A stretch of DNA of 64,000 bases, taken from contig CAKVHF010000001.1 of the NCBI GenBank assembly GCA_934748015.1, positions 80,918-144,917 of the forward strand. The letters are read 5' to 3'. The DNA comes from an uncultured Clostridia bacterium. Its GTDB lineage: Bacteria > Bacillota > Clostridia > Christensenellales > UBA1242. The text below is the continuation of a report on this DNA, generated by a model with database tools. The stretch itself is not shown here.

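Follow-up and report, generated by a model that had tools for sequence, protein, structure and literature searches.

The 217-residue terminal module of the giant lipoprotein (44962-45612), which occurs among related strains in three discrete, exchangeable forms (alleles A, B and C), contains eight cysteines (3.7%), in comparison with 46 (0.5%) in the remaining 9,244 residues of the protein. One of these, Cys9431 (motif DQQC), is common to all three alleles and to one module copy of P0002, a distant giant relative of 7,551 residues with the lipobox FFVAC, parts of whose stalk are 24-26% identical to the giant protein and whose C-terminus (residues about 7131-7551) carries the module twice in tandem, with a Ser-rich spacer between the copies. 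As part of an extracellular enzyme, the cysteines may form disulfides. The word-indexed protein search returned no giant protein; a relative that is 45% identical and has long words in common escaped it but turned up in an exhaustive search of representatives, and the exact 9,461-residue sequence is missing from the protein collection even though the gene is called on contigs. That index may therefore systematically under-report giant proteins.

The gene for the giant protein is preceded, at a distance of 85 nt, by a sigma-70-like promoter of perfect consensus (17116-17144) and is followed by an A/T-flanked hairpin (45636-45676), which can terminate both this gene and its convergent neighbor. 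The variable cassette has its 3' boundary at this hairpin. The neighbor (45706-47055, minus strand), directly after the giant gene, encodes a membrane-anchored protein of 449 residues with no match in Pfam; in related strains the gene is called at 461-463 residues, with 14 additional N-terminal residues. This protein was considered as an allele-matched immunity candidate and rejected, since it remains 95-98% identical whichever terminal-domain allele is present.

The stalk of the giant protein contains further mosaic blocks beyond the terminal module. The related-strain locus L009 shares the terminal allele of the window, yet is only 36-76% identical to it across one such block (44050-44785, residues about 8941-9216). 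Two other blocks (residues 6466-6564 and 7565-7764) diverge in the allele B strains and in P0001, a related giant protein, with identity falling to 55-80% within the blocks from 96-100% outside them.

Further downstream, a cluster of four plus-strand ORFs (49031-52591, 52855-55683, 55860-56792 and 56807-58246; 49031-58246 overall) is syntenic in every related strain, and none of its products matches a Pfam family above the curated cut-off. These comprise a 1,186-residue protein with a signal peptide, a C-terminal transmembrane segment and a KKAKKNKNK tail, a 942-residue protein with a hydrophobic N-terminus, and two acidic, Lys/Glu-rich proteins of 310 and 479 residues, the latter with a weak ACTMAP-like_C match (E = 6e-4). 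The allele B strains L010, L012, L013 and L014 carry an additional gene (about 19302-20456 in these loci), between a 473-residue gene and plsX, for a 384-residue GLF/FAD-oxidoreductase (UDP-galactopyranose-mutase-like). Missing from the window and from L009, it is a surface-glycan gene near the giant locus that varies by strain.
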